A program made the position numbers and the translations under genes. From a virus: 64,000 nt of DNA. Where the stretch lies: positions 33,843-97,842 of the IMG/VR virus record IMGVR_UViG_3300033149_006567, one strand, 5' to 3'. The notes under the pieces were generated by a model. The model worked only from the letters and a program-made list of their open reading frames with translations. It ran no database searches and was not told where the DNA came from. Positions 20,186-62,302 of the stretch are shown piece after piece (the first letter of the stretch is position 1; the number at the start of each line of letters is the position of its first letter).

Positions 20186-22450
20186 ATGTCTCTAAAGATT
20201 AGATGGGTAGGTCCTTACTCGGATCCTTGTTATGATGATCAGACTGAGGTGTTAACTTCTAGCGGTTGGAAATTTTTCAAAGATATTTCTTTCGAAGATG
20301 GTCTTGCCACTCTGAATGAATGGCATATCATAGAATACCAAAAGCCTTCTCATATAATAAACAGAGAGTATGAGGGCGAAATGTATTACCTGGACGCTCC
20401 AAGGGCTAAAATAAATATTTGTGTGACTCCTAATCATTCTATGTACGTGACTACGGAAAGCGGTAGGCGTTCAGGGCGAGCGAATGCGTGGCGTCTCGAA
20501 GAGGCGAGGGATATATATGGGAAAACGCGAGCTTTTAAAAGAGATGGTCGGTGGCGAAAAAAGGGGAAGGAGCATTTTCGGATATGTGGAAGAAAGATAA
20601 AGGCGGAGCATTGGCTGGAGTTTTTGGGATATTATCTTAGCGAAGGATCTGCAACTATTTACAAAAGGCCTGCTGGTGTTACAAAAGGGGGCAGGCATCC
20701 GGTATATAGGGATCGTTACGTGAATAGGACTTACGAGCGTTCTGAGTCAACAGAGTACATATTGCAAATCAGGCAGGTTAAAGGCGAGGAGAATCGGGTT
20801 CGAATGGCAGAGGCGGTTCGGCGAGTGACGAATAATTCGGTAAATACTCGAAACAAAGACGGGCGAATACTGGTGCACGACAAAGATCTGGTGCTTTATT
20901 TGAAGCGATTTGGAAATTGCTGTACCAAGTATATACCGAGAGACGTGTTAAACAAATGCTCTAAGGAACAGCTGGAGGTACTTTTCGAAGCTCTTGTTTT
21001 GGGAGGCGGAACAGACAACAGAAAGAAAGGTGGCGGGGTTATTTACAAGACCTTTTCCAAACGCCTTCGGGACGATTTTCTGGAGCTATTGCTTAAAGTC
21101 GGATTTTCTGGGCACTATAAGCGTGAGATCGTGAAGGGCGAAGAGATAAGAATAAACGGCAGAGTTTGCCATGCGAAAGAGGATGGCTGGAAAATAGGGG
21201 TACGATTTAAAAACCGCGGTTTTTTGAAAAAATCATCTCAATGTTCGGTCCCGAGTAAACATGAAGAAAAGATAGTCCCCTATAAGGGGCGAATTTATTG
21301 CGCTACGGTCCCTAACCATGTGCTTTTTGTAAGGCGAAATGGCTGCGTTTTATGGTGTGGGAACTCGGGCTACGGTAGTAACTCGAGAAAGTTCGTGCAT
21401 GCCCTATATAAGTTGCAAAAAAAATACGACTTTCGTCTTGGAACTATGCCGGTTTCTTTCGAAAAACAAAGGGCGGATTATGGAGAGGCCGGAAGAATTT
21501 GTAAACGCCTGGAGGAGCATGCACTTCAAGAGGACATCCGGATAATTAACACTACTCCAGAGTTTTATGATCGTTTGAAAAGGCCCGGAGTGTTAAATGC
21601 TGCTTATGTTACATTCGAACTAGATGGTATTCCCGATTTATGGGTCAGAGAGCTTAACAAGATGGACGCGGTATTTACTACGGCGGAGTTTTGTGCGGAA
21701 GTGTTTAGGAAGAGTGGGGTAAAAACGCCAGTATTTTCTGTCCCCCCGGGCTTGTTTCCCGAAGATTATCGGAGAGTGGAACCGTTGTCCTCCCTAGATG
21801 TCCCCGAAGATGTCTTTTCTTTTTATTCTATCTTTCAGTGGACTCCTCGCAAAAATCCCCAGGCTTTACTTCATGCGTATTGGTCGGAATTCACTGGACA
21901 AGATGATGTTTGTCTGGTTCTGAAGACTTACAAGAATGATACGTCTCCTCAGCAAGTTGATATGCTCAGGAGAATTATTGCTCAGGAAAAACGGGGTTTT
22001 CGGCTTGATCATCACCCCAAGATATTCTTTATCTCTCAATTGTTGAGTGCTAGTCAATTAGAAGATTTACATTTGTCTTGTGACGCCTTTGTCTCGACTA
22101 CGGCAGGGGAAGGAAATTTTATCCCCGCTTTTAACGCCATGGCATATGCTAAGCCAGTAATAGTTACGGGGTGGTCTGGGCATACAGAATATTGTCGACC
22201 CGAATATAATTATTTGTCTAAATACCAATTGAGGCCAGCTCACTCGATGAGTTGGTGTGCCTGGAATGAGGCTCGATTTAATTGGGCCGATGTTAATATA
22301 CTTCATTTTCGAAAATTGATGCGAGAGGTTTATGAAAATCGAGCCCAGGCGAAGAAGAAAGCTGAGAAAGGACAGCGATTTTTATTTAAGGAGTTTTCTT
22401 GGGAAAAAATGATTAAAAGACTCGTAGATGGTATTGAGGAGGTTTTGTGA
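20186..22450 (+). CDS. GT4-type glycosyltransferase interrupted by an intein
   Basis: Exteins join as WVGPYSDP/SGYGSNSR; QWTPRKN, GEGNFIP, VIVTGWSGH. Confidence 0.85.
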   Translation: MSLKIRWVGPYSDPCYDDQTEVLTSSGWKFFKDISFEDGLATLNEWHIIEYQKPSHIINREYEGEMYYLDAPRAKINICVTPNHSMYVTTESGRRSGRANAWRLEEARDIYGKTRAFKRDGRWRKKGKEHFRICGRKIKAEHWLEFLGYYLSEGSATIYKRPAGVTKGGRHPVYRDRYVNRTYERSESTEYILQIRQVKGEENRVRMAEAVRRVTNNSVNTRNKDGRILVHDKDLVLYLKRFGNCCTKYIPRDVLNKCSKEQLEVLFEALVLGGGTDNRKKGGGVIYKTFSKRLRDDFLELLLKVGFSGHYKREIVKGEEIRINGRVCHAKEDGWKIGVRFKNRGFLKKSSQCSVPSKHEEKIVPYKGRIYCATVPNHVLFVRRNGCVLWCGNSGYGSNSRKFVHALYKLQKKYDFRLGTMPVSFEKQRADYGEAGRICKRLEEHALQEDIRIINTTPEFYDRLKRPGVLNAAYVTFELDGIPDLWVRELNKMDAVFTTAEFCAEVFRKSGVKTPVFSVPPGLFPEDYRRVEPLSSLDVPEDVFSFYSIFQWTPRKNPQALLHAYWSEFTGQDDVCLVLKTYKNDTSPQQVDMLRRIIAQEKRGFRLDHHPKIFFISQLLSASQLEDLHLSCDAFVSTTAGEGNFIPAFNAMAYAKPVIVTGWSGHTEYCRPEYNYLSKYQLRPAHSMSWCAWNEARFNWADVNILHFRKLMREVYENRAQAKKKAEKGQRFLFKEFSWEKMIKRLVDGIEEVL
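20228..21364 (+). mobile_element. Intein (379 aa) with LAGLIDADG homing endonuclease domain
   Basis: Starts CYDDQTEVLT; block B VTPNH; FLGYYLSEG and LFEALVLGGG; ends YCATVPNH...VLWCGN followed by Ser. Confidence 0.9.
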
Positions 22451-36607: not shown

Positions 36608-37372
36608 GTGGGAACTATTGAAGTCTTTTTTTTGATTTTAGGACTGGCTATAGTTTGTGAGGCAATCGATGCTTCTATTGGGATGGGTTATGGTACCATT
36701 TTGAGCCCTTTGCTGATAATATTAGGGTTTTCGCCTCTTGTTGTCGCCCCAAGTATCTTGCTGTCTCAAGCCTTGGGGGGAGGTATCGCTGCGTTTAAGC
36801 ACCATCATTATGGCAATGTGTCATTTCTTCCGAAGTCTATAAACTTAAAGTCGGGGCTATTGATTGGGGGGCTGGGTTTGGTGGCGGTGACTGGCTCGGC
36901 CTTTTTGGCTGTTTCAGTCCCAAAGTATATACTGAAAACCTATATCGGGGTTGTTGTTTTAGCCATGGGGGGGCTTCTTTTAGCGAATCTAAGGTTCTCT
37001 TTTTCTTGGCTAAAGATGTTAACGTTGAGTATCGTTGGCGCGTTTAATAAAGGCTGGTTCGGTGGTGGTTTTGGACCGATTACTACTTCTGGGCAAATTA
37101 TTGTAGGGCAAGACCACAAGAATGCTATCGGGGTAACCACTTTCGCAGAGGTTCCGATTTGTTTAGCTGGATTTTTAACCTTCTTGCTAATCAACGGAAC
37201 GGGCCTTTTTTCTTTTCCTCTTATTTATGCCATGTGCCTTGGGGCTATGATAGGAGCCCCCCTGGGTGCCAGAGTAACTAAATGGATTAAGCTCGCCCAT
37301 ATGAGATACTTTGTCGGAGCAACAGTTCTTGTATTGGGAGCCTGGACTCTCTTAAAAACTTGGGTATTTTAA
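36608..37372 (+). CDS. TauE/SafE (TSUP) sulfite/sulfate-type permease
   Basis: Multi-pass membrane protein; DASIGMGYGTILSPLL, GGGFGP, AIGVT, GAPLGA. Confidence 0.8.
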   Translation: MGTIEVFFLILGLAIVCEAIDASIGMGYGTILSPLLIILGFSPLVVAPSILLSQALGGGIAAFKHHHYGNVSFLPKSINLKSGLLIGGLGLVAVTGSAFLAVSVPKYILKTYIGVVVLAMGGLLLANLRFSFSWLKMLTLSIVGAFNKGWFGGGFGPITTSGQIIVGQDHKNAIGVTTFAEVPICLAGFLTFLLINGTGLFSFPLIYAMCLGAMIGAPLGARVTKWIKLAHMRYFVGATVLVLGAWTLLKTWVF

Positions 37373-37385
37373 AAAGGAGTTTTAG

Positions 37386-38507
37386 ATGACTGTGAATTTT
37401 GTTGACATTCCGGGGCAATGGGCCCCCTTGCAAGACAAAATTTTTGAGGAGATGAAGGAGGCGGCCAACAAGGGGGCTTTCGTCGGGGGAGAAAATCTTA
37501 AGCGATTCGAATCAAGTTTGGCTGACTATGTTGGTGTTGACCATGCCATTGCGTGTAATTCTGGTACAGCGGCCCTTCAGTTGATTCTGATGGGACTCGG
37601 GGTAGGTCCGGGTGACGAAGTAATTCTTCCCGTTAATACTTTTATTGCTACTTATTTTGCCGTTCAGCATGTTGGTGCAACAGCGGTATTGGTTGACTGC
37701 GAAAGCCAAGGATACACTATAGACCCCTTCTTGGTTAGGATGGCCGTTACGGATAAGACTAAGGCCATAATAGCCGTACATTTGTATGGTCAATGTGCCC
37801 TAATGGAGGAACTCGCCGAAATTGCCGACGACTACAACCTTTTTCTAATAGAGGATTCCGCCCAAGCCCTAGGAGCCCAAAGAAACGGCAAGATGACTGG
37901 CTCTATTGGCTTTGCGGCAGGAATAAGTTTTTATCCAGCTAAAAACTTGGGTGCTTGGGGAGAGGGTGGAGCTGTTACCACGAACGATGACTTACTTGCC
38001 AAGCGTATTAGACGGATACTTGATCAGGGACAAAAAGAAAAGTATGTACACACAGAGTTAGGACATAATTTTCGTCTTCCTCCTCTGCAATCTATCCCAC
38101 TTTATTATGGCCTGAAGGAGCTCGATGATTGGAACAATAATCGGCGTTCTGCGGCAGACATGTATCGGGCCGGGATAGAGAGAGAAGGAAGTTGCCCCGT
38201 TGAATTAGAGGGAAATAGGCACGTTTATCATTTGTTTGAGTTCAATGCGGGTGGTTATCGGGATGAGCTTAAGGAATATTTGGCGGAGAAAAATATACCC
38301 GTTGGGCTACATTATCCTCGCCTAATTTGTGATCAACCTATTTTTTGCAAACGGAGTCGAACAAGTTACTGCATGGGAGACAAGATGTTTTTTAAGGCTC
38401 GCCATGTAGTCCGCAAACTTTTGTCCCTCCCCATGCACCCTCTGATGTCCAAGGGGGACGTAAATGAAATTTGTGGTGCGATAAAGGATTTTTACGACAG
38501 CTTGTGA
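37386..38507 (+). CDS. DegT/DnrJ/EryC1/StrS sugar aminotransferase (WbpE/WlbC-like)
   Basis: NSGTAAL, VHLYGQ, EDSAQA, SFYPAKNLGAWGEGG, LSLPMHP. Confidence 0.92.
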   Translation: MTVNFVDIPGQWAPLQDKIFEEMKEAANKGAFVGGENLKRFESSLADYVGVDHAIACNSGTAALQLILMGLGVGPGDEVILPVNTFIATYFAVQHVGATAVLVDCESQGYTIDPFLVRMAVTDKTKAIIAVHLYGQCALMEELAEIADDYNLFLIEDSAQALGAQRNGKMTGSIGFAAGISFYPAKNLGAWGEGGAVTTNDDLLAKRIRRILDQGQKEKYVHTELGHNFRLPPLQSIPLYYGLKELDDWNNNRRSAADMYRAGIEREGSCPVELEGNRHVYHLFEFNAGGYRDELKEYLAEKNIPVGLHYPRLICDQPIFCKRSRTSYCMGDKMFFKARHVVRKLLSLPMHPLMSKGDVNEICGAIKDFYDSL

Positions 38508-49202: not shown

Positions 49203-51923
49203 TTAAACACCTATACATCCTAAAAGACCCGAGGGCAAAGGGTCCGGAAGATAAATTGGTTTTTTAAAATCAAGTGTTACATCAGACTTAAGGGCTATTT
49301 TTAAGTGAAACTTTTTTTTATTTTTCATGCCCGAAATGGCCGACAACAGGACGGGAATTTTTTCGATGGGGAGAGAAAGCAAAGGAATGTCGTCTTTTTT
49401 GTCTTTCTTTTTTTTATGAATAATTTTTACTGGAGCCACATGGCGAACAATAAACTTTGCAATATTTTTTTCTCCGTCTATTTCTATTACTTCTGTTTTA
49501 CCGCTAAAAAGAAGAGGGGTAAGAGGGGTCAAAAATTTGTTACACTTTTTGAATACCGAAGGAAATATTACGGCCTCTATACTCCCAGTTGTATCTTCTA
49601 GTCGAGCAAAGGCCATTTGTTGTTTTTTCCTCGAAGTCGTATGCTCTTTCATTACAGAAAGAATTGCCAGAATATTTGCGTCAGAGCCACTAGGCAAATC
49701 TGAGAGTAACGATATGTCGTCTATTTCATAAGAATTTTCTATCGAAATGCCCTCCAGGGGGTGCCCACTTAGGAAAAAGTTTAAGTGAAAGTGTTCCTCC
49801 TCTAGCAGGACTTGTTTTTCTACTTCAGGTATATCTGGGACTGTAGGGACGCGGGGCGCTAGAGGTCGAACGGGCTTTTTTAGTGGAGTAAGTTTGACTT
49901 TTTGTTCTTTCCCGTTTTTATCTACTCGAGTTCTGTATTCCCCATTGACGACCTTTTCCAACCTTTCCTCATAGGCTTTCATCTTTTTATTATATGTTTT
50001 CAGCTTAGACTCAAAGCTTTTTTGCTCTTTCATCCAGTCCCAGCGTTTTTCTGCGTAGACCAGCAGGGAGGCCCGTGTGTGGCCAAAAGAATCAAAGGCA
50101 CCCGCTTTGATAAGAGACTCTATCTTAAGCTTGTTCACCCTGGAAAGATGAACTCTAGCGCAAAAATCTCTTATTCCACTAAAGGGACCCTGTTTGAAAC
50201 GCTTGTCTAATATTTCCTTGGTGGGGCCTTCCCCGATATTTCTGATAGGGATTAGCCCAAAGCGAATAGAACCTGACTTCGTTATAACAAAACGGTCCTT
50301 GCTTTCATTGATGTCAGGGGGGAGCACTTTGATACCTAGGCGCTGACATTCTCCCAAATACTTAATCATCTGGTTAACGTCACCGGCATCTTTGGTCATA
50401 CAGGCGGCCATAAATTCTACTGGATAGTGTGTTTTTAAGTAGGCTGTTTGAAAGGCTAAAAGGGCATAACCTAAACTATGAGACTTGTTAAAAGAGTAAG
50501 AGCTAAAACCGTGAAGTCGTTCCCAAAACTCCTCAAAACCCGCAGGAGAGAGTCCCCTTTTTAGCCATCCTTTTTTGAACCTTTCCTTTTGAGCTTGAAG
50601 AAGTTTATCGTCTTTTTTCCCGATGGCTTTTCTGAGCGTATCTGCCTCGGCCATGGAGAAACCACCGAAGGCCCGGGAGAGTTGCATTACCTGTTCTTGG
50701 TAAACCACGATTCCGCAAGTGTTTGATAATATCGGTTTTGCATCTGGATGAAAGTAAGTGGGCTCTTTTTCTCCACTCTTACAGGCTACGTATTCGTCAA
50801 CAAGCCCCGATTCGAGAGGGCCTGGCCTGAATAACGCTATAACATCGGATAGCTCAGAGATGCTAGTAGGCTTAGCCCTTACGGTCAGGTCTCTGAGGCC
50901 CTGCGATCCTTCGAGTTGAAAACAGCCAAGTAAATGTCCTTGCTGTATCATTTTGAATGTTTCTTTATCTTCTGTATCTAAGTTTTCTATGTCAATCGTT
51001 TTTTCATGTCTTTCTTTTATCAGATCCAGACACAGACCGATTTTATCGAGGACTAGAAGCCCAAGAAGATCAAATTTTATTAAACCTATTTCTTCTACTT
51101 CATTTTTGTCCCACTGGGTAGCCGCTCCACCATCGCCTTTTGTTCTGTAAAGAGGAGTCTTTTCATATATAGGCTCATTAGATATTAAAAGACCTGATGC
51201 GTGAACTCCAGCCGAGGCTATTCTTCCTTCAAATTTTTCTGCCCATTCCAGTATTTCTTTTTGAGGACCTGGGTTGATTCTGTAATTTTTAAGTTCTTTA
51301 ACTTTTTGGTAGCAGGCATCAAGGGACTGGGGCTTGCCGTGAACAGGGGCAAGTACCAATTTTCTTAGCTCTTCTCCGGTTTGTATTGAATAGCCTAGGG
51401 CGCTACAAACTTTTTGAATGGCCTGTTTCGCTTTCATGGTTCCTATTGTCCCCACTTGGGCCACACAGTCCTTTCCGTATTTCTGGGTAAGATATTTTAC
51501 AACAGATTCTCTTTGCCCCTTGGGAAAGTCTAGGTCGATATCGGGAGGTGATATTCTGTGGGGGTTTTGAAAGCGCTCAAAGAAAAGGTCATACTTGATG
51601 GGATCTACGGTGGTTATCTCAAGAACATAGGCTATTAAACTTCCGGCCACACTGCCTCTCGCGGGTCCTCGGGGGATGTCATTTCTTTTGGCCCACAAAA
51701 CAAAGTCTTGAACAACAAGAAAATAGCTCGAGAATCCCATGGACTTTATGACGTCCATTTCGTATTCAAGCCGTTTTACGTACTCAGGTTCGCTATCCAA
51801 ACCCCTTTTCTTTAGTCCCCCGCGACATTTAAACTCGAAATAAAGGTCTAGATCTTTCTTGTCAAAACCAGATTGTTCAGTCATTCCACGGGTACCGTTT
51901 TTTGATTCAAAAAACAAAACCAT
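49203..51923 (-). CDS. dnaE: DNA polymerase III alpha, C-terminal part (palm/thumb/fingers/OB), no PHP domain
   Basis: RGSVAGS, FFERF, PDIDLDF, HASG, IKFDLLGL, RPGP, YQEQ, FNKSH, SGHP. Confidence 0.95.
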   Translation of the reverse strand: MVLFFESKNGTRGMTEQSGFDKKDLDLYFEFKCRGGLKKRGLDSEPEYVKRLEYEMDVIKSMGFSSYFLVVQDFVLWAKRNDIPRGPARGSVAGSLIAYVLEITTVDPIKYDLFFERFQNPHRISPPDIDLDFPKGQRESVVKYLTQKYGKDCVAQVGTIGTMKAKQAIQKVCSALGYSIQTGEELRKLVLAPVHGKPQSLDACYQKVKELKNYRINPGPQKEILEWAEKFEGRIASAGVHASGLLISNEPIYEKTPLYRTKGDGGAATQWDKNEVEEIGLIKFDLLGLLVLDKIGLCLDLIKERHEKTIDIENLDTEDKETFKMIQQGHLLGCFQLEGSQGLRDLTVRAKPTSISELSDVIALFRPGPLESGLVDEYVACKSGEKEPTYFHPDAKPILSNTCGIVVYQEQVMQLSRAFGGFSMAEADTLRKAIGKKDDKLLQAQKERFKKGWLKRGLSPAGFEEFWERLHGFSSYSFNKSHSLGYALLAFQTAYLKTHYPVEFMAACMTKDAGDVNQMIKYLGECQRLGIKVLPPDINESKDRFVITKSGSIRFGLIPIRNIGEGPTKEILDKRFKQGPFSGIRDFCARVHLSRVNKLKIESLIKAGAFDSFGHTRASLLVYAEKRWDWMKEQKSFESKLKTYNKKMKAYEERLEKVVNGEYRTRVDKNGKEQKVKLTPLKKPVRPLAPRVPTVPDIPEVEKQVLLEEEHFHLNFFLSGHPLEGISIENSYEIDDISLLSDLPSGSDANILAILSVMKEHTTSRKKQQMAFARLEDTTGSIEAVIFPSVFKKCNKFLTPLTPLLFSGKTEVIEIDGEKNIAKFIVRHVAPVKIIHKKKKDKKDDIPLLSLPIEKIPVLLSAISGMKNKKKFHLKIALKSDVTLDFKKPIYLPDPLPSGLLGCIGV

Positions 51924-53513: not shown

Positions 53514-53747
53514 TCAAGATTTTTCTGAAGTTTCTTCTGGAGAGTTTTTCGTTATATCATGGAAGGACTCAAGCCTATCTATTATTTTTTGGCATTTGGG
53601 GCAGACCCAGCCTAGTTTTTGGGTATATATCCAGCCGAATACTTTCGCACACCTAGAGGCCTCCCGCTTATTGGCACCGTCTAACATTTCCCAATTACCA
53701 CACCTACATTCAACAAGAAATTCTAAGATGAGTTGGCCTCTTTCCAC
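53514..53747 (-). CDS. Small Cys-rich protein
   Basis: CRCG...GW...WVCPKC. Confidence 0.45.
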   Translation of the reverse strand: MERGQLILEFLVECRCGNWEMLDGANKREASRCAKVFGWIYTQKLGWVCPKCQKIIDRLESFHDITKNSPEETSEKS

Positions 53748-54676
53748 TCAAGAAACTCCTCTAGATCCAGGGCCTTGTTTAGGTCGAAGACAGGTGGGTG
53801 TAAAACTCCCAGCTCTATTTCTATTAAATCACACATTTCAGAAATTAATAGGGTGTTTTCGGTGGCTTCTGGAATATTGTATTTTTCTAAAGTGAGGACT
53901 ATTTCTTCGTAATTTTTAATGTAGAAACTCGTTCCGTAAATCATCTTGTCGGCTTCTAGGTACTTCTCGACTGTCTGCCTCATTTGCATTGCCATCATAA
54001 GAGTGTGCAGTTTATGGTGGGCTTTGGTGAGATAATGGGCGTCTGTTGTGACGATTATGGGAACGTTCCTCTTTCTTGCCAGACTTATAAGCCATCTATT
54101 GTACGGCTCCTGCCTAGGGTCATCGGTATCTATAACTTCCGCAAAAAAATTATTTCCAAAAATGGCCCTTAATAGGTCAAATTTCTTTTCTGCGCGGCCA
54201 TCTGGGTCACGAACTTTGAAGCCATCGTTTTCGTTGTATTCCAAGAGCTTTGCGCAAACTCCACCAAGACAGGCAGTAGACGCGATGAAGTTCTCTCCAC
54301 ACCCCTTAAGGTTCTCTATCGAAATGCGAGGTTTGTAATAGAAATTATGCATATTGGAGAGGGACACCAATCTCAGGAGGTCTTTGTACCCCTGTTGGTT
54401 CTTGGCTATCAAGACCATATGATGATTATCTCTGGTCTTCTTTTCTGTGCCGTCTGGGTCTTCGGTCGTGTAAGCCTCTACGCCCAACAGCCCCTTGATG
54501 CCCTTCTTTTTACATTCTTTGTAGAAATTGAGAGTGTTATGCAAGCATCCGTGATCGGTAAGTGCTACAGCTGGCATATTCAATTGTTTTACCCGAGAAA
54601 CTAGTTCATCACAGCGGATAGATCCGTCAAGTATACTGCCCTCTGAGTGCACATGTAGGTGAACAAAATTATTCAC
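53723..54676 (-). CDS. dnaE: DNA polymerase III alpha N-terminal PHP domain as a stand-alone gene
   Basis: FVHLHVHS..SILDG, ALTDHG, GVEAY, FYYKPR, STACLGG, TDAHY. Confidence 0.92.
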   Translation of the reverse strand: MNNFVHLHVHSEGSILDGSIRCDELVSRVKQLNMPAVALTDHGCLHNTLNFYKECKKKGIKGLLGVEAYTTEDPDGTEKKTRDNHHMVLIAKNQQGYKDLLRLVSLSNMHNFYYKPRISIENLKGCGENFIASTACLGGVCAKLLEYNENDGFKVRDPDGRAEKKFDLLRAIFGNNFFAEVIDTDDPRQEPYNRWLISLARKRNVPIIVTTDAHYLTKAHHKLHTLMMAMQMRQTVEKYLEADKMIYGTSFYIKNYEEIVLTLEKYNIPEATENTLLISEMCDLIEIELGVLHPPVFDLNKALDLEEFLEWKEANSS

Positions 54677-54914: not shown

Positions 54915-55946
54915 TTATTTTTTAAGCTTTTCTTTTAAAGATGTTTCAATGGTTTGGAGTAATTCAGGATTGCCCTCGAGGGTTCTGACTGCTCCAAGTT
55001 CTCCCTGTCCGATAGTGGTCCCATCATAAGAAAACCAGGAGCCTTTCTTTTCTATTATTCCCTCTAAAGCCGCGAGGCCAACGAGAGAGGATACCGGATC
55101 GATTCCCTTCCCGAATAGGAGACTTAGTTCTGCCACTTTATAAGGACGCCAAATTTTATTCTTAACGCAGGTAACCTTGACCTTGTTTCCTATTACCTCT
55201 TCTCCTTGCTTGATGTACCCCATTCGCCGGACTTCCAGGCGTTGAGAGGCATAAAACTTCAAAGAATTTCCCCCCGGAGTGACGTTTTTCGGACCGTATC
55301 CAAAAGTGGATATATTACTTCTGGTTTGATTGACAAACATGACGTGAGTGTCAGTCCTGTTTATGGCCGCGATTGTTTTCCGGAAGAATTCACTCATTAA
55401 GCGAGCTTGTAAGCCAATAGTGGCATCTCCGATTTCTCCCTCCAGTTCAGCTTTAGGTACCAAGGCGGCAACAGAATCAACTACTATCAAATCAACTCCA
55501 CCACTTTTGCTAAGGATGTTAACTATGTTGAGAGCATCGTCTCCAGAGTCAGGCTGAGAAAGTAGCATATCGTCTACGTTTACGTTGGCATCTAGGGCAT
55601 ACGAAGGATTAAAGGCGTGTTCTGCGTCTATTAGGGCGCATTTTCCTCCGTTTTTTTGTGTCGCCGCGATAGACAGAAGAGAAACAGAAGATTTTCCTGC
55701 TGATTCTGGTCCAAATACTTCAGAAACTCTTCCTCTGGCCAGGCCGCCCCCTAGTATATAATCAAGAGGATGGCAACCTGTTGGATAAAATTCAACGCCA
55801 ATCCTTGGGGTATTTTTATCAAAGATGCAACCCTCTCCGTAGGCTTTTCGAATATTTTTTAGGGCCATTTCTACGGCCATGGCCCGTCTATCCTTAGGGC
55901 CGCCACCTTTAGGGTTACTATCCGTCTTTTCTTTCTTTGGTGGCAT
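54915..55946 (-). CDS. recA: Recombinase A
   Basis: GPESAGKS, IDAEHA, SQPD, VDSVAAL, QARLMS, GGNSLKFYAS, KNK. Confidence 0.97.
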   Translation of the reverse strand: MPPKKEKTDSNPKGGGPKDRRAMAVEMALKNIRKAYGEGCIFDKNTPRIGVEFYPTGCHPLDYILGGGLARGRVSEVFGPESAGKSSVSLLSIAATQKNGGKCALIDAEHAFNPSYALDANVNVDDMLLSQPDSGDDALNIVNILSKSGGVDLIVVDSVAALVPKAELEGEIGDATIGLQARLMSEFFRKTIAAINRTDTHVMFVNQTRSNISTFGYGPKNVTPGGNSLKFYASQRLEVRRMGYIKQGEEVIGNKVKVTCVKNKIWRPYKVAELSLLFGKGIDPVSSLVGLAALEGIIEKKGSWFSYDGTTIGQGELGAVRTLEGNPELLQTIETSLKEKLKK

Positions 55947-56304
55947 TTAGCCTCCTCTTTCTGAATGCTATTCCCTTTGCAATTTCTTTTCGGAGCTTTC
56001 TCCTCTCCCAAGAAGGATTAAGGTTCAATATAGCTCCGATATCGGCAAAAGAGATGGAAAAATCTCCCCAGTCTATTCTATAATCATCGTCGAACAAAAA
56101 ATCTTTTGCCTCATCCCACACTTCTTTATCAGAAGCGTCATCTGAGTCGGATAAATTGATGATGTCCCTTTTCGCTTGTAAAATAACGCGGAGCAATATT
56201 TCTCGGCACTCTTGTTCATTCAAGTCTCTACCGAGGTCATAATCGTCCAAAAAGAATTCTACATTTTGCTTACCAGCTCTGTATTTTTTGCCATATCTAT
56301 CCAC
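55918..56304 (-). CDS. Hypothetical protein
   Basis: Operon packing with recA. Confidence 0.5.
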   Translation of the reverse strand: MDRYGKKYRAGKQNVEFFLDDYDLGRDLNEQECREILLRVILQAKRDIINLSDSDDASDKEVWDEAKDFLFDDDYRIDWGDFSISFADIGAILNLNPSWERRKLRKEIAKGIAFRKRRLNATKERKDG

Positions 56305-56877
56305 CTACTCCCACTCGTCCTCCTTTTCGTCAACTTCTTTGCCAAAGATATCTTCTTCGGTGGTTCCTCCGACACTATGTACGTTTCCTTCGACCTTAAG
56401 GGTAAGAGCATTGTTCATTGTCACCCCCTCGAGTTTCTTTCTCATTCGAGTGAGGTGGTTTATTTTATTTTTCCAGAATTCTCGTTCTATTTTGGCGGCT
56501 AGGGCGGCCTCCTCCATATCTTTGACTGCTGCCTTAGCCATGGTCTTGAAGAAATCGGCTGCTGGGAGTCTTTTTCCCTCCGCCCTGTATTCTGCCACCA
56601 GTTCTTCGTATTTGGACTCGTAGGATTGAATCCTGGCCCACTCAAGGGCAGTGTAACGAGCGTCTGCAGCGTCAAACATACCCGAGGCGAGCTGATTAAG
56701 CTTCATTAGTCGCACACCCATTCTATGACACTGAATGGGAGTCAAATCTTCATCTATGTCCAGGGAACAAAACTTTCGATTCCACTCCCTCATGGACTTA
56801 CCCCCTATCAAAAGGGCCTCATTTAGTTCCTGGCGTAACTGACCGAATCTTTGAATTGCGTCTTTGACCTTTTGCAT
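56305..56877 (-). CDS. Helical hypothetical protein (possibly UvsY-like)
   Basis: AAGGAG RBS; all-helical; upstream of recA; function speculative. Confidence 0.4.
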   Translation of the reverse strand: MQKVKDAIQRFGQLRQELNEALLIGGKSMREWNRKFCSLDIDEDLTPIQCHRMGVRLMKLNQLASGMFDAADARYTALEWARIQSYESKYEELVAEYRAEGKRLPAADFFKTMAKAAVKDMEEAALAAKIEREFWKNKINHLTRMRKKLEGVTMNNALTLKVEGNVHSVGGTTEEDIFGKEVDEKEDEWE

Positions 56878-56897
56878 TTCCCGCTCCTTGAAGCCTG

Positions 56898-56927
56898 ATT
56901 ATATCCTAATCAAGACTCAAAAGTCAA
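56898..56927 (-). promoter_or_regulatory. Sigma70-like promoter for the recA-PHP unit
   Basis: Minus strand TTGACT-N18-TATAAT; shares ttaggaTATAAT with the 52336 promoter. Confidence 0.7.
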
Positions 56928-56935
56928 CATATATT

Positions 56936-57871
56936 TTAAGCTTTTACAATTTTTTTGCGAATTTCCGGATAAACGACAGGCAGGGGACAAGCATCGAAGT
57001 CGTATCTGTTTCTACAGCGATGTAAAAGTAATTTCATCTTGTCTACGTTTCGGACCACACCTTTGTAATCCGGATTAGGATGATGGGGACAACCAGTTGC
57101 AACTCCGTTGGGCCATACACAGCAAGTAGAAACATTGGCATCACACCCGTAATCAGATTTAAAGTAGGAAGCAGTAGCTTTAAGACAGGGATCTATTCTT
57201 ACCTTTTTGACTAAAATTTTAGGAAGTTTATTTTTTAGTGTCATATATAAAGAGATGGTAGCTCCGATCTCTTTTGCAGATAAAGAAGATTTGGGTGTCA
57301 AGATGGTGGCCGACTTGACTAAATATAGCTGCTCTTTAATATAGTCAAGTCTTTCGTCATCTAGGGGGGTGGGAAAGGCAGTCCAATTCCAATGCAGCTT
57401 GTCGCGAATATGTTTTGTTTTTATGAGAAGATCTTCCTTTTCTATATTTAAATTGTCAACAGAAATCTGGCTTGTTCGTTTCATCAAATCAGAGAAATAG
57501 GGTTGCCAATATTTGCTTCTCATTGAAAGGCGAGAGTAATGTGAATATGTATTTATGTCAGGAAAGCACAGTTCTATTTTAGGAAAGGCATACGTATTGC
57601 CAGAACCCTTGAGCAGAGTTTTCCAGTATTCCCACGAAAGATTGTGGGTATTTCTGTTGGTGGGACGACCAAAATATAACACTAGGTTTTTTACGATAAC
57701 GTCTTGGCGACCCAGGACATTCCCGAGAAACCCCGAATGTCCCCCTAGATGCCTCTTAATACCTCTATAGCCCTTAATGTTTCCGTTTTCTTGGATGAAT
57801 GGGCGGATGTGTAGTGTTGACAAATATAGGGTGCTTTCTCTCTCGAATTTCTTTCTGCGATACCTCGGCAT
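56936..57871 (-). CDS. Hypothetical protein with a SPASM/twitch-like Cys cluster
   Basis: GCDANVSTCCVWPNGVATGCP; no CxxxCxxC. Confidence 0.4.
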   Translation of the reverse strand: MPRYRRKKFERESTLYLSTLHIRPFIQENGNIKGYRGIKRHLGGHSGFLGNVLGRQDVIVKNLVLYFGRPTNRNTHNLSWEYWKTLLKGSGNTYAFPKIELCFPDINTYSHYSRLSMRSKYWQPYFSDLMKRTSQISVDNLNIEKEDLLIKTKHIRDKLHWNWTAFPTPLDDERLDYIKEQLYLVKSATILTPKSSLSAKEIGATISLYMTLKNKLPKILVKKVRIDPCLKATASYFKSDYGCDANVSTCCVWPNGVATGCPHHPNPDYKGVVRNVDKMKLLLHRCRNRYDFDACPLPVVYPEIRKKIVKA

Positions 57872-57877
57872 CTTGAC

Positions 57878-58456
57878 TCAAGATTCTCCCGTAGGCTTCG
57901 GAGAGATATTGTCGCTACTGTTCGGGCTATCTCTGTCGCTGATAGAATTATTGTCGTTGTCGGCGAGTTCAAGCTGTATCTCCTCTGCATTTATTTTCTG
58001 AAGAAGCTCCAGTAAATACTTGAACTCTTGAATATTTACGTCATCTTTTTTCCTTCCTCCTATTGTTACTCTAATGTCGCCATCTTTGATAGTTATCTTT
58101 TTTATTTTATCGATGGCAGACACTTCGCCTTCAAGAATACTTCTGAAGCCGTCCAAAACTGCTTTGGCCTCCTGAATGGCTCGTCGATTAGAAGATTTAT
58201 TCTCGAGCAAGGAAGGATGGGGGAACTTTAATATTTTATCAGCAGGGATATCCCCGAAGTTGGGATAGGTTTTTAGTTGAGAAAAGGCTTTTCTTCCGTA
58301 TATCAGAATGACATCACTTTCGATTCCCGATACTTGAAAGAATTTTAAGTCTAGAATATTTATTTTTTCTATTTTACTAGACAGCGACTGGGCCATCTTG
58401 GCGATTATCTTCTCGTGTTTGTCTTTTATGTTGAACGAGTAGGCAGTTGCTATCAT
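57878..58456 (-). CDS. Hypothetical protein
   Basis: 192-aa ORF co-oriented with neighbours. Confidence 0.5.
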   Translation of the reverse strand: MIATAYSFNIKDKHEKIIAKMAQSLSSKIEKINILDLKFFQVSGIESDVILIYGRKAFSQLKTYPNFGDIPADKILKFPHPSLLENKSSNRRAIQEAKAVLDGFRSILEGEVSAIDKIKKITIKDGDIRVTIGGRKKDDVNIQEFKYLLELLQKINAEEIQLELADNDNNSISDRDSPNSSDNISPKPTGES

Positions 58457-58565
58457 TAAGAAAACTTTTCTGCTAAATGATCCAGGATTTCCTTGACAAT
58501 TTCTTCCTTTTCTTTGTTATTCACTAATTCAAAATTACCTCCTTCTTTTTTAAGCAGCGCATTGA

Positions 58566-58901
58566 TTAACGATTCGGCTTGTACCAGCGAGGGGTCTCTA
58601 GTTTTCGAAATTCTTTCCACTTTAACCTCAGTTCCGGGAATGGGTACCGGCCTTCGCCCTTATCTTTCATTATCCAGTATCCATGGTCTATATAAAAAAT
58701 GCTTCTAGGTTTTAATTCTTCTAATGCCTTTTCTTTCTCTGAGTCGTCGACCCAAAGGGAGACATGATAACGGCTGAATTCTTGTTTGCCGTATGTGCTT
58801 TGTCCTGCAACGTCAAAGTACAACATCCAGCCATTTTTGGCTTTGTATTCTCTTATTTGGATATCCTTCGGGATACCCACTATGCCATTGACATTCAGCA
58901 A
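58566..58901 (-). CDS. SSB-like OB-fold protein
   Basis: NVNGIVG..KD...F.VA...YHVSLW pattern; no acidic tail. Confidence 0.45.
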   Translation of the reverse strand: MLNVNGIVGIPKDIQIREYKAKNGWMLYFDVAGQSTYGKQEFSRYHVSLWVDDSEKEKALEELKPRSIFYIDHGYWIMKDKGEGRYPFPELRLKWKEFRKLETPRWYKPNR

Positions 58902-59449
58902 AGGTTTATCCTCTTTTTTATTCTGTCCATTTCCTCAATGTAGATGCCTTCACAAGAAACTAAATCGATGTCTACATTAGAGGCGACAGAGGTTTCTGCG
59001 ATTATCTCTGCTGCTGGGCTTTTCGATAGATTAGAAAAGTTAAGCAGAGGATAATCATTATTAAGAACGAAGAGTATCCGTTTTCCTTCGGCAGCGCTAG
59101 TGTTAAGCAGCTTCATTAACATCCTGTATATCTCGTCCAGATAAGGGTCATGTTTGCTTCGAAAAGTTCGAATGTTTATCGGCCAGCCCTCGGGAGGGGG
59201 CAAGGTGTTCGCAAAGGAGACGCTGTGGCCTGCGATATCTCTACTTTCCAGTCCTCTGGCGACTAAATAAACAGTAAAGTCGTGTCCAGTCACTAGGTCT
59301 ATTGGATTTCCAAGAACGTCTCGACAGGGATAAAAGTCCCTGAAGCCAGCCAGGAGCTTGGCCATAGACCCAGTTATTCTGTCTTTCATGTGCCTAAGAT
59401 AGTATTCGGCGCACCAGATACAACTGAAGCGAAAGTCTGAATTAATCAT
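58895..59449 (-). CDS. Hypothetical protein
   Basis: AGGAG RBS before MINSDF. Confidence 0.5.
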   Translation of the reverse strand: MINSDFRFSCIWCAEYYLRHMKDRITGSMAKLLAGFRDFYPCRDVLGNPIDLVTGHDFTVYLVARGLESRDIAGHSVSFANTLPPPEGWPINIRTFRSKHDPYLDEIYRMLMKLLNTSAAEGKRILFVLNNDYPLLNFSNLSKSPAAEIIAETSVASNVDIDLVSCEGIYIEEMDRIKKRINLC

Positions 59450-59467
59450 TGGGCACTCCTGTAGACA

Positions 59468-59513
59468 AAAAGGCCCCCCGAGCAGGGCAAAGGGGGAAAG
59501 GCACTCGGGGGGC
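59468..59513 (-). terminator. Intrinsic terminator after the Whirly-like gene
   Basis: gccccccgag/ctcggggggc 10-bp stem followed by cttttt on the minus strand. Confidence 0.6.
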
Positions 59514-59550
59514 GAAGGCATCGTAGCTAACGATGCAACTCGATTTTAAA

Positions 59551-60072
59551 TTAGGACCAGCAGAGGATTTTGGGTATAGCAGCCTCGAAGATAATCTTAA
59601 GGACTCGAATTTCCTCTTTTGATATCGGGAGACTGTGTTCAATTTTATCATCCCCTATCTTTTTAAAAATCTTCAAGAAGTAGCTGCCGTCTCTTCCCAC
59701 TGAAAAAGTGAGTTTCTTATCGATTACTTGGGCGCCCGGCTTGCCCTTATTGGGATCATGGTAGATGCCTATCTTCTCTCCTCTAGAAAAAGCATTCAGT
59801 ATTTTGGAGATATCTGTGATATTCAGGGCCAATTTAATGCTGTTCTCCCAGTCGTATCGATTTCTGGCGACTGCGCTAGTAACTTCTACCAGAATGGCAC
59901 CTGTTATCACTCTCATTTCTCCATCGCAATGCTTATTTCGGGTATGATTCGGAGAAATAAAGTTTTCTTCTCGACACTTAGGGCATTTGAATTTGGTTTG
60001 TATTAACTTAAATTGAGCAGCCCCATACTTACCGGAAATTCCCTTGTAAATTGCAAAGTCTTGAGGTCTCAT
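59551..60072 (-). CDS. Whirly-like single-stranded nucleic acid-binding protein (173 aa)
   Basis: IYKG...AA, RYDW, YHDPNKG, PISKEE, IPKILCW in the order of plant Whirly motifs; GGGAGG RBS. Confidence 0.8.
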   Translation of the reverse strand: MRPQDFAIYKGISGKYGAAQFKLIQTKFKCPKCREENFISPNHTRNKHCDGEMRVITGAILVEVTSAVARNRYDWENSIKLALNITDISKILNAFSRGEKIGIYHDPNKGKPGAQVIDKKLTFSVGRDGSYFLKIFKKIGDDKIEHSLPISKEEIRVLKIIFEAAIPKILCWS

Positions 60073-60109
60073 GGTTTTTACCTCCCTATCGGGACCATTA
60101 CTTGCCTCA

Positions 60110-60138
60110 AGTATATCATCTTTTTCAGGAAAATGCAA
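60110..60138 (-). promoter_or_regulatory. Sigma70-like promoter for the Whirly-like gene
   Basis: Minus strand TTGCAT-N17-TATACT with TG extension. Confidence 0.6.
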
Positions 60139-60214
60139 TACTTTCAGTCCCTCTAGCCTTAAATTGCGCCTCCCATTACAGTAGAGGGGGTTAACTTGAT
60201 TCTCCCCGCGAAAA

Positions 60215-60511
60215 CTAATCTTGACCCTTGCCCCCGCTGTTGTTTTGGCCGCCACCGCTGCCAGAATTAGGTCTCTGTGGCTTGGGTGATTCAGGCCTAG
60301 TACTAGACGGAGGAGCTGAATTAACTCCTCCTTTCCTTATTTTACCCTCACTAAGTGGATCGTTTCTTTCTTTTCCATCTTCCATCAACCTGACCTCTTC
60401 TGGGTCCCCTCGGCCATCAGCAATGAGGTTTCGGGCCACATAAATGGCTCCTGGTTTACTCGCCGCCTTTACTTTTAGACGAAAGACTACTTCGTATTCC
60501 ACTTTTTCCAT
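60215..60511 (-). CDS. Hypothetical protein with a low-complexity tail
   Basis: GAGGAG RBS; 98 aa. Confidence 0.5.
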   Translation of the reverse strand: MEKVEYEVVFRLKVKAASKPGAIYVARNLIADGRGDPEEVRLMEDGKERNDPLSEGKIRKGGVNSAPPSSTRPESPKPQRPNSGSGGGQNNSGGKGQD

Positions 60512-60812
60512 CTGTTTTCTCCTCTGAAACTTCTTTAAGGTCCTCAGGCCACTTTTGATTCATCAGCAATCCCTGGGCCATCATAGCAAAACCGATACGC
60601 CCTGGCTTGGCATAGTACTCTTTCATGACTTCGGACGCTGGCGGGGTTTTATCCTTATACCCCTCTATAGAGGCCCCTACGGCATAGATTAAATTACTCA
60701 AGACCAATATTAAATCTTCTACAGTGAGAGGGTTATCATGTAGTGCGTTGATTAGCTTGGCCAGGACTTGATCTCGATTTAGTCTCTTTTTTTTCTTCTT
60801 TTTCTTGCCCAT
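60456..60812 (-). CDS. Hypothetical protein
   Basis: GAGGA RBS; poly-Lys N-terminus. Confidence 0.5.
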   Translation of the reverse strand: MGKKKKKKKRLNRDQVLAKLINALHDNPLTVEDLILVLSNLIYAVGASIEGYKDKTPPASEVMKEYYAKPGRIGFAMMAQGLLMNQKWPEDLKEVSEEKTDGKSGIRSSLSSKSKGGE

Positions 60813-60880
60813 TTAATCCTCGCCAGGTACCGTTTGACAATCTTTTGCTGTAATTGTGATAAGTTTTTGCTTATTTATCT

Positions 60881-61027
60881 TCATTTTCTTCCTCGGCCCT
60901 TACCTCGGCCTCCACCTGTCCCTTTGCCTGGGCCACTATTCGAGCAGGGACCCTTATTTTTGTTGCGACGTCTACCGCCTGGCTTTCCCTTTCCTCTGCC
61001 ACTACCATCTTTCTTACCATAAGCCAT
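60881..61027 (-). CDS. Gly/Arg/Lys-rich 48-aa peptide (absent from the ORF track)
   Basis: AAGGAG RBS; MAYGKKDGSGRGKGKPGGRRRNKNKGPCSNSGPGKGTGGGRGKGRGRK. Confidence 0.6.
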   Translation of the reverse strand: MAYGKKDGSGRGKGKPGGRRRNKNKGPCSNSGPGKGTGGGRGKGRGRK

Positions 61028-61029
61028 TC

Positions 61030-61521
61030 TCATTCTCCTTCTCCGTTAGAAAAACCGTTAATTTTCTCGAACAAATCTGGATAATCCGTCTTGAATGGTG
61101 CCCATCTGAGGGCGTTTTCGGCCAACTTGATAGACGTATCTATCAAGTTGTCCCGATTGTCCCTTAGAACATTCATTATTTTTTCTAGTGTATCTCTGTA
61201 AAATTTAAGGTATCGTTTGAACTCTTCTTTGTTTATCGGGCGCCTGGGGGCCTCCTGAATACCGGCCGAATTCATTGCTTCTTGGGGAGTAGAAAATATC
61301 CTTGGTGAACAGTCTTCTTTTGTGTACCAAGCCCAAGCATGAAGTTGATCTCCCCATTTTCCATAGTAATAAACTACATACTTTCTACTGTCGACAAGGT
61401 CTTCGCAGTGAAAGTCTCCGCTTTGATGATTTAACTTCCAGATTCGTCCGTATATGTCTTCACAGGCAATCTCTCCCATTTTCCTTTTTATGGGAACCCT
61501 TTTTAGGCCAAATTCGCTCAT
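61030..61521 (-). CDS. Hypothetical protein
   Basis: AGGAG RBS; 163 aa. Confidence 0.5.
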   Translation of the reverse strand: MSEFGLKRVPIKRKMGEIACEDIYGRIWKLNHQSGDFHCEDLVDSRKYVVYYYGKWGDQLHAWAWYTKEDCSPRIFSTPQEAMNSAGIQEAPRRPINKEEFKRYLKFYRDTLEKIMNVLRDNRDNLIDTSIKLAENALRWAPFKTDYPDLFEKINGFSNGEGE

Positions 61522-61675
61522 GATTAACTCCTACTAAATGTTCTCTGACCAACTAACGCTAGGGTACTCGTCTCCTTCCGATCGTTTCTTACAGAACATC
61601 CTCGTTGCCCTGACGGGTCTTCATGGGGTACGCGTCAGCGATAAAGGCTTCCGCTCCTAAGCAAGCAGTATCCTT

Positions 61676-62302
61676 TTATATGTCCACTCGGGAATCATAG
61701 AAGGGCTTACAAACATCCCACCAGTAATCTGAGACCGGCAAGATGTGAATCCTGCTTTCTCTGTTTATCTCAGAACCAAGTCTGTCTATCTTTTCAAGAT
61801 ATTTTTTGACAGACTGGATTACATGCGTATAGTGCTGCACCGGGCTTCTTCCCCGAGCAAGCTCCCTCCGAACCTTAGTTTCCCCCCTATTGTAGGCTGT
61901 TATTGCTAAGGTTTCATCGTAGTCAAACATTTCTAGGTAATTGGCAAAAATACTTGTGCCACAATCGATATTCTGTTTTATATCCCTTAGGTAAAAGCCC
62001 CTGCACAGGCCCCTAGAGGTCCAAAAAGGCATAACCTGCATAAGACCCGTGTCTCCTTGAGCTCCTTTTACCCACCACTTGAAACCGGATTCAATATACA
62101 TGATAGCTAAAACAGTATTAGGATCAAGCTCTTTTTCTCTACACTGTTCAGCTATTTCCTGAGCTATTCTTTTAGCAGTATTAGTGGAGGTTTTCTTGCG
62201 GAGGATCAATATCTTCATGAAGATTTTAGATTCATCTTCTATTTCTACTGGAGTACTTCCCAATAAGAAAATACCAAATAAAGCTAAAAGCAGAGTCCTC
62301 AC
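61676..62302 (-). CDS. Lytic transglycosylase (SLT domain) with N-terminal signal/anchor
   Basis: AIMYIESGF, GLMQV, NIDCG, AITAYNRG; probable GTG start at 62302. Confidence 0.85.
   Translation of the reverse strand: MRTLLLALFGIFLLGSTPVEIEDESKIFMKILILRKKTSTNTAKRIAQEIAEQCREKELDPNTVLAIMYIESGFKWWVKGAQGDTGLMQVMPFWTSRGLCRGFYLRDIKQNIDCGTSIFANYLEMFDYDETLAITAYNRGETKVRRELARGRSPVQHYTHVIQSVKKYLEKIDRLGSEINRESRIHILPVSDYWWDVCKPFYDSRVDI

Follow-up and report, generated by a model that had tools for sequence, protein, structure and literature searches.

Whirly proteins are described as plant-specific or unique to plants in current plant reviews and gene-family papers, and the origin of the family is left unexplained. 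In higher plants, the second Lys of the KGKAAL motif (K67 in StWhy2; PMC3245945) drives assembly into a 24-mer. In a 2026 preprint, strand exchange by chloroplast RecA1, a recombinase of the bacterial type, is reported to be stimulated by purified plant WHY1 and WHY3 but not by canonical mtSSBs (preprint 10.64898/2026.10.24.761589). The Whirly-type fold is also encoded by phages: ChmC (PhiPA3 gp61, PhiKZ gp67, Goslar gp176) is described as a tetrameric binder of single-stranded nucleic acids (PMC11077065). Here we report a phage gene whose product is a true member of the Whirly family (PF08536), in sequence as well as in predicted fold and over the whole domain. It is a variant within this known family; new are a putative zinc-knuckle insert and the phage RecA module in which the gene is found.

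The window analysed is a stretch of 64,000 nucleotides, positions 33,843 to 97,842 of IMG/VR virus record IMGVR_UViG_3300033149_006567; all coordinates below are those of the window. Since the record of 97,842 bp is rated 51% complete by CheckV, the genome should measure approximately 190 kb. The contig is a fragment of a large uncultured tailed phage. A preliminary description made from the sequence had spoken of a phage gene lying among replication and recombination genes, and both statements hold: the IMG/VR virus record contains virion structural proteins, a primase-helicase, a split DnaE and RecA, and on the minus strand RecA, PHP and DnaE form one block. Virion structural protein families and the primase-helicase belong to a block on the plus strand, and the minus-strand block further comprises UDG, PhoH, two metallophosphatases and an SLT lytic transglycosylase. 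The bacterial-type RecA is encoded at 54915..55946 (-; PF00154, E 1.3e-92, plus RecA_C). At 53723..54676 (-) lies a PHP-domain protein, the detached N-terminal part of DnaE (PF02811, E 2.9e-41; phrog_405 positions 41-321), and at 49203..51923 (-) the DNA polymerase III alpha core (DnaE) without PHP (PF07733, PF17657 and PF14579). As a result of the split, PHP is a separate protein of 317 aa and the polymerase core one of 906 aa, 1.8 kb further on, with a metallophosphatase and two small ORFs in between.

Some other features of the window deserve mention. A protein of 754 aa (20186-22450, +) joins an N-terminal thymidylate-synthase-like part (phrog_85) to a C-terminal glycosyltransferase (phrog_2170) and is possibly a DNA base hypermodification enzyme. 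At 36608-38507 (+), adjoining the primase-helicase, a membrane protein of the TauE/SafE sulfite-exporter family is encoded together with an aminotransferase; these are possibly auxiliary metabolic genes, as would suit a phage living at vents or in sediment. The stretch 56000-62000 occurs in hydrothermal vent and sediment metagenome runs from two studies, with 79% and 45% of the sampled words. Among the public sequencing runs listed, no RNA runs hold this stretch.

The Whirly-family gene occupies 59551..60072 on the minus strand and encodes 173 aa plus stop, as judged from its translation, Pfam and PDB sequence matches, the AF2 model and Foldseek. Residue for residue, the protein quoted in the preliminary description is the exact translation of this ORF (MRPQDFAIYKG...AAQF...GAILVEVTSAVARNRYDWENSIKLALNITDISKIL...YHDPNKG...LPISKEEIRVL...IPKILCWS). 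A ribosome-binding site, GGGAGG, can be read from the sequence at 60081..60086 (-), 8 nt 5' of the ATG at 60072. The frame stays open for a further 183 nt in the 5' direction (60073-60255, -), up to a GTG at 60255, and the public gene call P0002 uses an earlier start, yielding a protein of 195 aa that is 22 residues longer than the one supported by homologues. As the homologues all start a few residues before the YKG motif, the ATG at 60072 is the likely start, and that of P0002 is probably over-extended.

Of the two transcription signals that had been claimed for the gene, only the terminator was recovered. It is an intrinsic terminator at 59465..59513 (-), approximately 40 nt past the stop codon, in which a 10-bp G+C stem (GCCCCCCGAG/CUCGGGGGGC, reading from 59513 to 59465) is followed by a U run (CUUUUUGU); for the 99-nt stretch the folding energy is -35.4 kcal/mol (z -3.3 relative to shuffled sequences). 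A second, smaller hairpin lies just upstream of it at 59518-59536, and the gene after Whirly starts with an ATG at 59449, for which there is a separate AGGAG site. Given its own terminator, Whirly would be transcribed apart from RecA. A consensus (sigma-70) scan found no promoter upstream on the minus strand; the best candidate by eye, TTGCAT-17-TATACT, matches at 8/12 positions only.

Results of the sequence comparisons show that the resemblance to Whirly, to which the preliminary description had pointed, is genuine and well beyond what chance would produce. HMMER against the Pfam Whirly model PF08536 yields 55.6 bits (E 6.7e-15; gathering cut-off 23) over residues 51-159 and profile positions 23-134 of 136, and a six-frame search of the whole record gives the identical result. 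When PDB sequences are searched with phmmer, the significant matches are Whirly proteins only, namely AtWHY2 (4kop, E 2.8e-11) and five more structures, which include StWhy2 (3n1h, E 4.6e-9), PBF-2 p24 (6e-8), AtWHY3 and AtWHY1, with E from 3e-11 to 1e-6 over the whole range and alignments that reach the last residue. The YDW and HDP motifs, the conserved Lys and a hydrophobic C-terminal helix that ends with W are all present and align to the same residues of WHY2. Among 46 relatives, Y73, W75, H105 and W172 are invariant, and conservation is 90% or higher for the YK of YKG, D74, D106, P107, K119 and E154. The KGKAAL region reads YKGISGKYGAAQF, so that six residues break up the motif, and because of this interruption the lysine for 24-mer assembly (the equivalent of StWhy2 K67) has no assignable position. 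Exact KGKAAL is missing in green algae too (PMC9070903).

The predicted structure agrees with this assignment. Built with the 46 relatives as input, the AF2 model has a mean pLDDT of 96.7 and places strands at residues 6-69, a helix at 85-97, strands at 101-150 and a helix at 152-169, i.e., two antiparallel four-stranded sheets, each followed by a helix, as in the Whirly fold. A structural match to plant Why1/Why2 had also been proposed as a check; for the predicted single-chain model, Foldseek ranks plant Whirly chains first, in the order StWhy2 (TM 0.78), PBF-2, WHY3, WHY1 and WHY2 (TM 0.72-0.78, E approximately 1e-11, best 7e-12). MRP1/MRP2 are some seven orders weaker than plant Whirly and Pur-alpha some eight to nine orders. 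By analogy with plant Whirly, the protein would form a tetramer through its C-terminal helices, and its beta-sheet blades would bind single-stranded DNA (ssDNA) without sequence preference.

What sets the protein apart is a putative zinc-knuckle insert at 59926..59985 (-), residues 30-49. It has the pattern C-x2-C-x9-H-x5-C and lies in the first sheet, within the hairpin that joins strands 2 and 3. The CPKC...H....HC stretch that had been pointed out is indeed present there, and four ligands of the zinc type recur in relatives, but the likely set is C30, C33, H44 and C49 (CCHC) rather than H...HC. It had likewise been stated that plant proteins lack the insert, and no eukaryote-type sequence carries a CxxC insert. 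From strand 2 (GAAQFKL) to strand 3 (GAILVEV) there are approximately 36 residues; many phage relatives, like the eukaryote-type sequences, have approximately 20. All eight of the nearest relatives have C30 and C33, and in most of them an H and a C stand opposite H44 and C49. Among the best 150 of 311 family clusters, 37 besides that of the window protein have CxxC in this insert. A second Cys/His pair follows downstream in 31 of these 37 (18 clusters with two or more Cys, 13 with one Cys and at least one His) and lies upstream in most others. In a second state the insert is of similar length and cysteine-free, of the PHFY...KDFTGE...GWK-REG type; overall, inserts without CxxC contain 0-1 Cys. 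The third state is the absence of an insert, seen in one relative group and in every eukaryote-type row. All three states are found inside the RecA-syntenic phage lineage described below. Changes of state counted on the tree amount to at least 12-18, a count we do not rely on as the tree is weak and some insert columns were possibly retained.

Two Cys/His pairs are thus kept across relatives, and because the four ligands are kept or lost together they point to a structural zinc site. The match of the Whirly protein to Pfam Zn_ribbon_16 is not significant (E 0.16). The 20-residue insert would sit at the outer tip of the first blade and most likely hold one structural zinc ion; the putative zinc would stiffen the extended hairpin and offer nucleic acid or a partner protein an additional contact. 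Sister phages with zinc-knuckle, cysteine-free and insert-less variants provide a ready-made series for studying the role of the blade tip.

To assess the size of the family, 1.84 billion representative proteins were scored exhaustively with HMMER. This yields 311 Whirly-family clusters (50% identity) at E <=1e-3 and 92 at E <=1e-10, mostly of metagenomic proteins with 150-200 aa; a word-index protein search matched only the window protein itself. The best 150 of the 311 clusters are mostly 140-200 aa long and aligned end to end, and the members looked up are metagenomic singletons. Rows with N-terminal extensions of 45-105 residues start at approximately E 1e-11, and those with names come from green algae and other protists; of all relatives that carry a name, the green-algal ones from Micractinium and Chlorella are nearest. 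One relative, P0139, is recorded as a hypothetical protein of Acinetobacter sp. on a 195-kb contig. No match was obtained when four diverse family members were compared by tblastn with 50,697 GenBank phage records, nor in bacterial and archaeal genomes as scanned with narrow peptide patterns only. A large phage-associated family supports the viral reservoir that the preliminary description had suggested. Its novelty is reduced in one respect: 'Whirly transcription factor' is the label of one metagenomic member in IMG and of one UniProt entry from an uncultured Caudovirales phage (BFVD), and with such automatic labels public annotation has already noticed the family. The occurrence in phages is therefore visible in databases. 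In the literature that could be searched, we found no description of phage members recognized at sequence level.

Pattern scans of IMG/VR revealed 14 loci with true Whirly homologues, on contigs of 40-198 kb. In all 12 related records searched, RecA (E 1e-87 to 1e-128) and Whirly are on the same strand with RecA downstream, at a distance of 5.7-30 kb against 3.6 kb in the window. The order conserved by tblastn is 118 aa, Whirly, sometimes 111 aa, 311 aa, 190 aa, 128 aa, RecA, PHP and DnaE, even though Whirly identity across the syntenic loci is only 26-33%. Whirly is an old core gene of the recombination/replication block in this lineage. Nonetheless, the 12 syntenic records are kin and represent one phage lineage, so gene order is no independent proof of a functional link. 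The 118-aa protein (60456..60812, -) has no Pfam family and is found directly upstream of Whirly in 6 related loci. The 111-aa protein (58566..58901, -), conserved downstream of Whirly in 3 loci, lies approximately 0.65 kb downstream of it in the window and has no acidic tail. It is possibly a small SSB-like protein, which we give as a lead only: its nearest ESM Atlas clusters score 0.92-0.93 and carry PF00436 SSB on 24-51% of their members, and profile searches of Pfam, PHROG and PDB lend no support to an OB-fold SSB. As a separate observation, the RecA match of two related phage records is in two pieces approximately 0.5 kb apart, at G011:C1:34475-35829 (L075) and G002:C1:28862-30217 (L003), covering profile positions 3-203 + 200-262 and 2-203 + 178-262, respectively. 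Such a gap points to an intein, an intron or the insertion of a homing gene.

The 190-aa protein (56305..56877, -), situated between Whirly and RecA in 12/12 related loci, is probably a UvsY-like recombination mediator. It is helical (AF2 pLDDT 86.6), and in VIA-align the top four rows of its model are T4 UvsY (Z 10.3-11.3; best rmsd 2.7 A over 123/125 residues), whereas unrelated helical proteins reach Z <=9.4; a Z under approximately 13 is weak for helical proteins. T4 UvsY is also the top Foldseek match (TMt 0.73-0.77), and a language-model search (ESM Atlas) independently led to UvsY clusters. By sequence the protein has no family in Pfam or PHROG. The UvsY profile PF11056 had no match in 12 members of the 190-aa family at E up to 1, and none in six-frame searches of four records. 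The protein is encoded just upstream of RecA at loci L002-L004 and L074-L082 as well.

Taken together, we consider it rather likely that the gene product is a Whirly-family ssDNA-binding accessory factor, a presynaptic helper of the phage RecA recombination/replication module that carries a putative zinc insert. Whirly would coat and protect ssDNA arising at breaks and forks and, acting with the UvsY-like mediator, help the bacterial-type RecA of the phage itself in strand exchange, in a setting of recombination-dependent replication and repair. A presynaptic trio of Whirly, UvsY-like mediator and RecA is the most economical reading. Some observations speak against the helper role: a terminator and several genes separate Whirly from RecA, and the Whirly protein ends at the last W of the domain, with no acidic tail for partner recruitment. 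Against the assignment of UvsY, the Z of 11.3 is within the range where helical proteins can match by arrangement alone. The leading rival, which we regard as unlikely, is that Whirly is the phage's main replicative SSB at the fork and replaces an OB-fold SSB. PF00436 SSB was not found in this record (although here the absence is read from a record that is only ~51% complete), in 11 of the 12 related records in which RecA and Whirly had been located, or in fragments G004 and G005; the 11 include G001 and G013, both 100% complete according to CheckV. Similarly, families of the gp32 and Enc34/gp2.5 type were not found in G000, G001, G013 and G003 in searches without a positive control, and a monocistronic gene with a strong ribosome-binding site and its own terminator fits an abundant protein. 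Yet the flexible linker and acidic C-terminal tip that SSBs use for replisome partners are missing, G003 carries both Whirly and a canonical SSB (E 1.5e-37), and another ssDNA binder may exist in the 111-aa neighbour, SSB-like by language-model features only. Very unlikely in our view is a mainly RNA-binding protein that handles phage transcripts, like ChmC or like plant WHY1 in intron splicing. Such a role has precedents: in the Chimalliviridae, which are nucleus-forming jumbo phages, ChmC with its Whirly fold binds RNA more strongly than ssDNA and is required for infection (PMC11077065), and RNA binding is known for plant Whirly proteins (PMC9070903). Furthermore, MRP1/2 are the next-best fold matches after plant Whirly. 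However, the window protein is a Whirly at sequence level, closest to the ssDNA-binding plant proteins, whereas ChmC has no detectable similarity to Whirly; it does not have the disordered C-terminal tail of ChmC, and the genes conserved around its own serve DNA recombination and replication.

A different question is where the gene comes from. If it were a recent capture from an alga or plant, it would be uninformative on the origin of the family. In favour of a capture, the closest named relatives are the green-algal ones given above and the tree is without a root. Other observations point in the opposite direction and make a recent capture highly improbable. At least 110 of the best 150 clusters are short and without transit peptides; the GxxGKxGA first-strand insertion and the variable hairpin insert, common to the short proteins, are missing in eukaryote sequences. 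The window protein shares 27-38% identity with eukaryote-type rows against 37-45% with its nearest metagenomic relatives, and Whirly belongs to the syntenic core of a phage lineage that has diverged deeply. Also, the eukaryote-type rows are not scattered among phage rows. In a 132-row maximum-likelihood tree (quick search, unrooted, 9/129 inner branches well supported) they form one cluster of 16 tips with SH-aLRT 92. Nearest to this cluster are short proteins without transit peptides, none of which were found in the IMG/VR scan, and then verified phage rows. With a root in the non-eukaryotic part, eukaryotic Whirly is nested in a phage-associated family; with a root on the eukaryote stem, the two are sisters. 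A phage ancestry of plant Whirly is compatible with this tree. Going one step further, plant and algal Whirly might descend from the phage family, the cooperation of Whirly and RecA being an inherited phage trait; this we offer tentatively, as a possibility to which we give less than even chances. Twinkle and the T7-like organellar RNA polymerase are phage-derived parts of the organelle DNA machinery. If the descent is true, Whirly joins these and other such parts, and the cooperation of chloroplast Whirly with bacterial-type RecA first evolved in a presynaptic module of phage Whirly, a UvsY-like protein and RecA.

Overall, a large and diverse phage family at sequence level changes the plant-only picture of Whirly and represents a plausible source for the plant proteins. 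Phage and bacterial systems also offer a simple setting for the mechanism of Whirly, i.e., ssDNA coating, higher-order assembly and help to RecA. The conserved position near RecA and the UvsY-fold protein agrees with the new biochemistry, in which the organellar RecA works with plant Whirlies rather than with canonical SSBs. The pairing of a UvsY-like mediator with RecA instead of UvsX would be unusual.

Among known systems, the sPC4/Whirly-fold sensor domains of the Shedu and Menshen antiphage systems, bacterial Pur-alpha and YdbC may be compared first. They are prokaryotic members of the same broad fold superfamily of single-stranded nucleic-acid binders, but are half-size domains of which a dimer mimics one Whirly protomer, occur in nuclease/ATPase fusions and have no PF08536 match. 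ChmC is a relative at the level of the fold only, whereas the window protein is a Whirly at sequence level in a RecA module; ChmC moreover prefers RNA, has a disordered C-terminal tail and acts at the phage nucleus (PMC11077065). T4 gp32/UvsY/UvsX likewise combine an ssDNA binder, a UvsY-fold protein and a recombinase in one phage block, and the two systems may work alike. In our phage, however, the recombinase is a bacterial-type RecA (PF00154) and not UvsX, the putative ssDNA binder has a predicted Whirly fold where gp32 has an OB fold, and the mediator matches UvsY by predicted structure only. Closest are the plant and green-algal Whirly proteins (StWhy1 = PBF-2 p24, StWhy2 and AtWHY1/2/3; 1l3a, 3n1h, 4koo, 4kop and 4koq), which are of the same HMM family and show the two-sheet, two-helix fold predicted here. 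YK(G), YDW, HDP, the conserved Lys and the C-terminal helix ending in W are common to both, at an identity of approximately 30% in HMMER alignments and 19-22% in the structure-based alignments of Foldseek. The phage protein differs in having no organelle transit peptide or N-terminal extension, a six-residue insertion in KGKAAL and a 20-residue CCHC insert in the first hairpin. Finally, plant and phage Whirly are both encoded alongside a bacterial-type RecA system.
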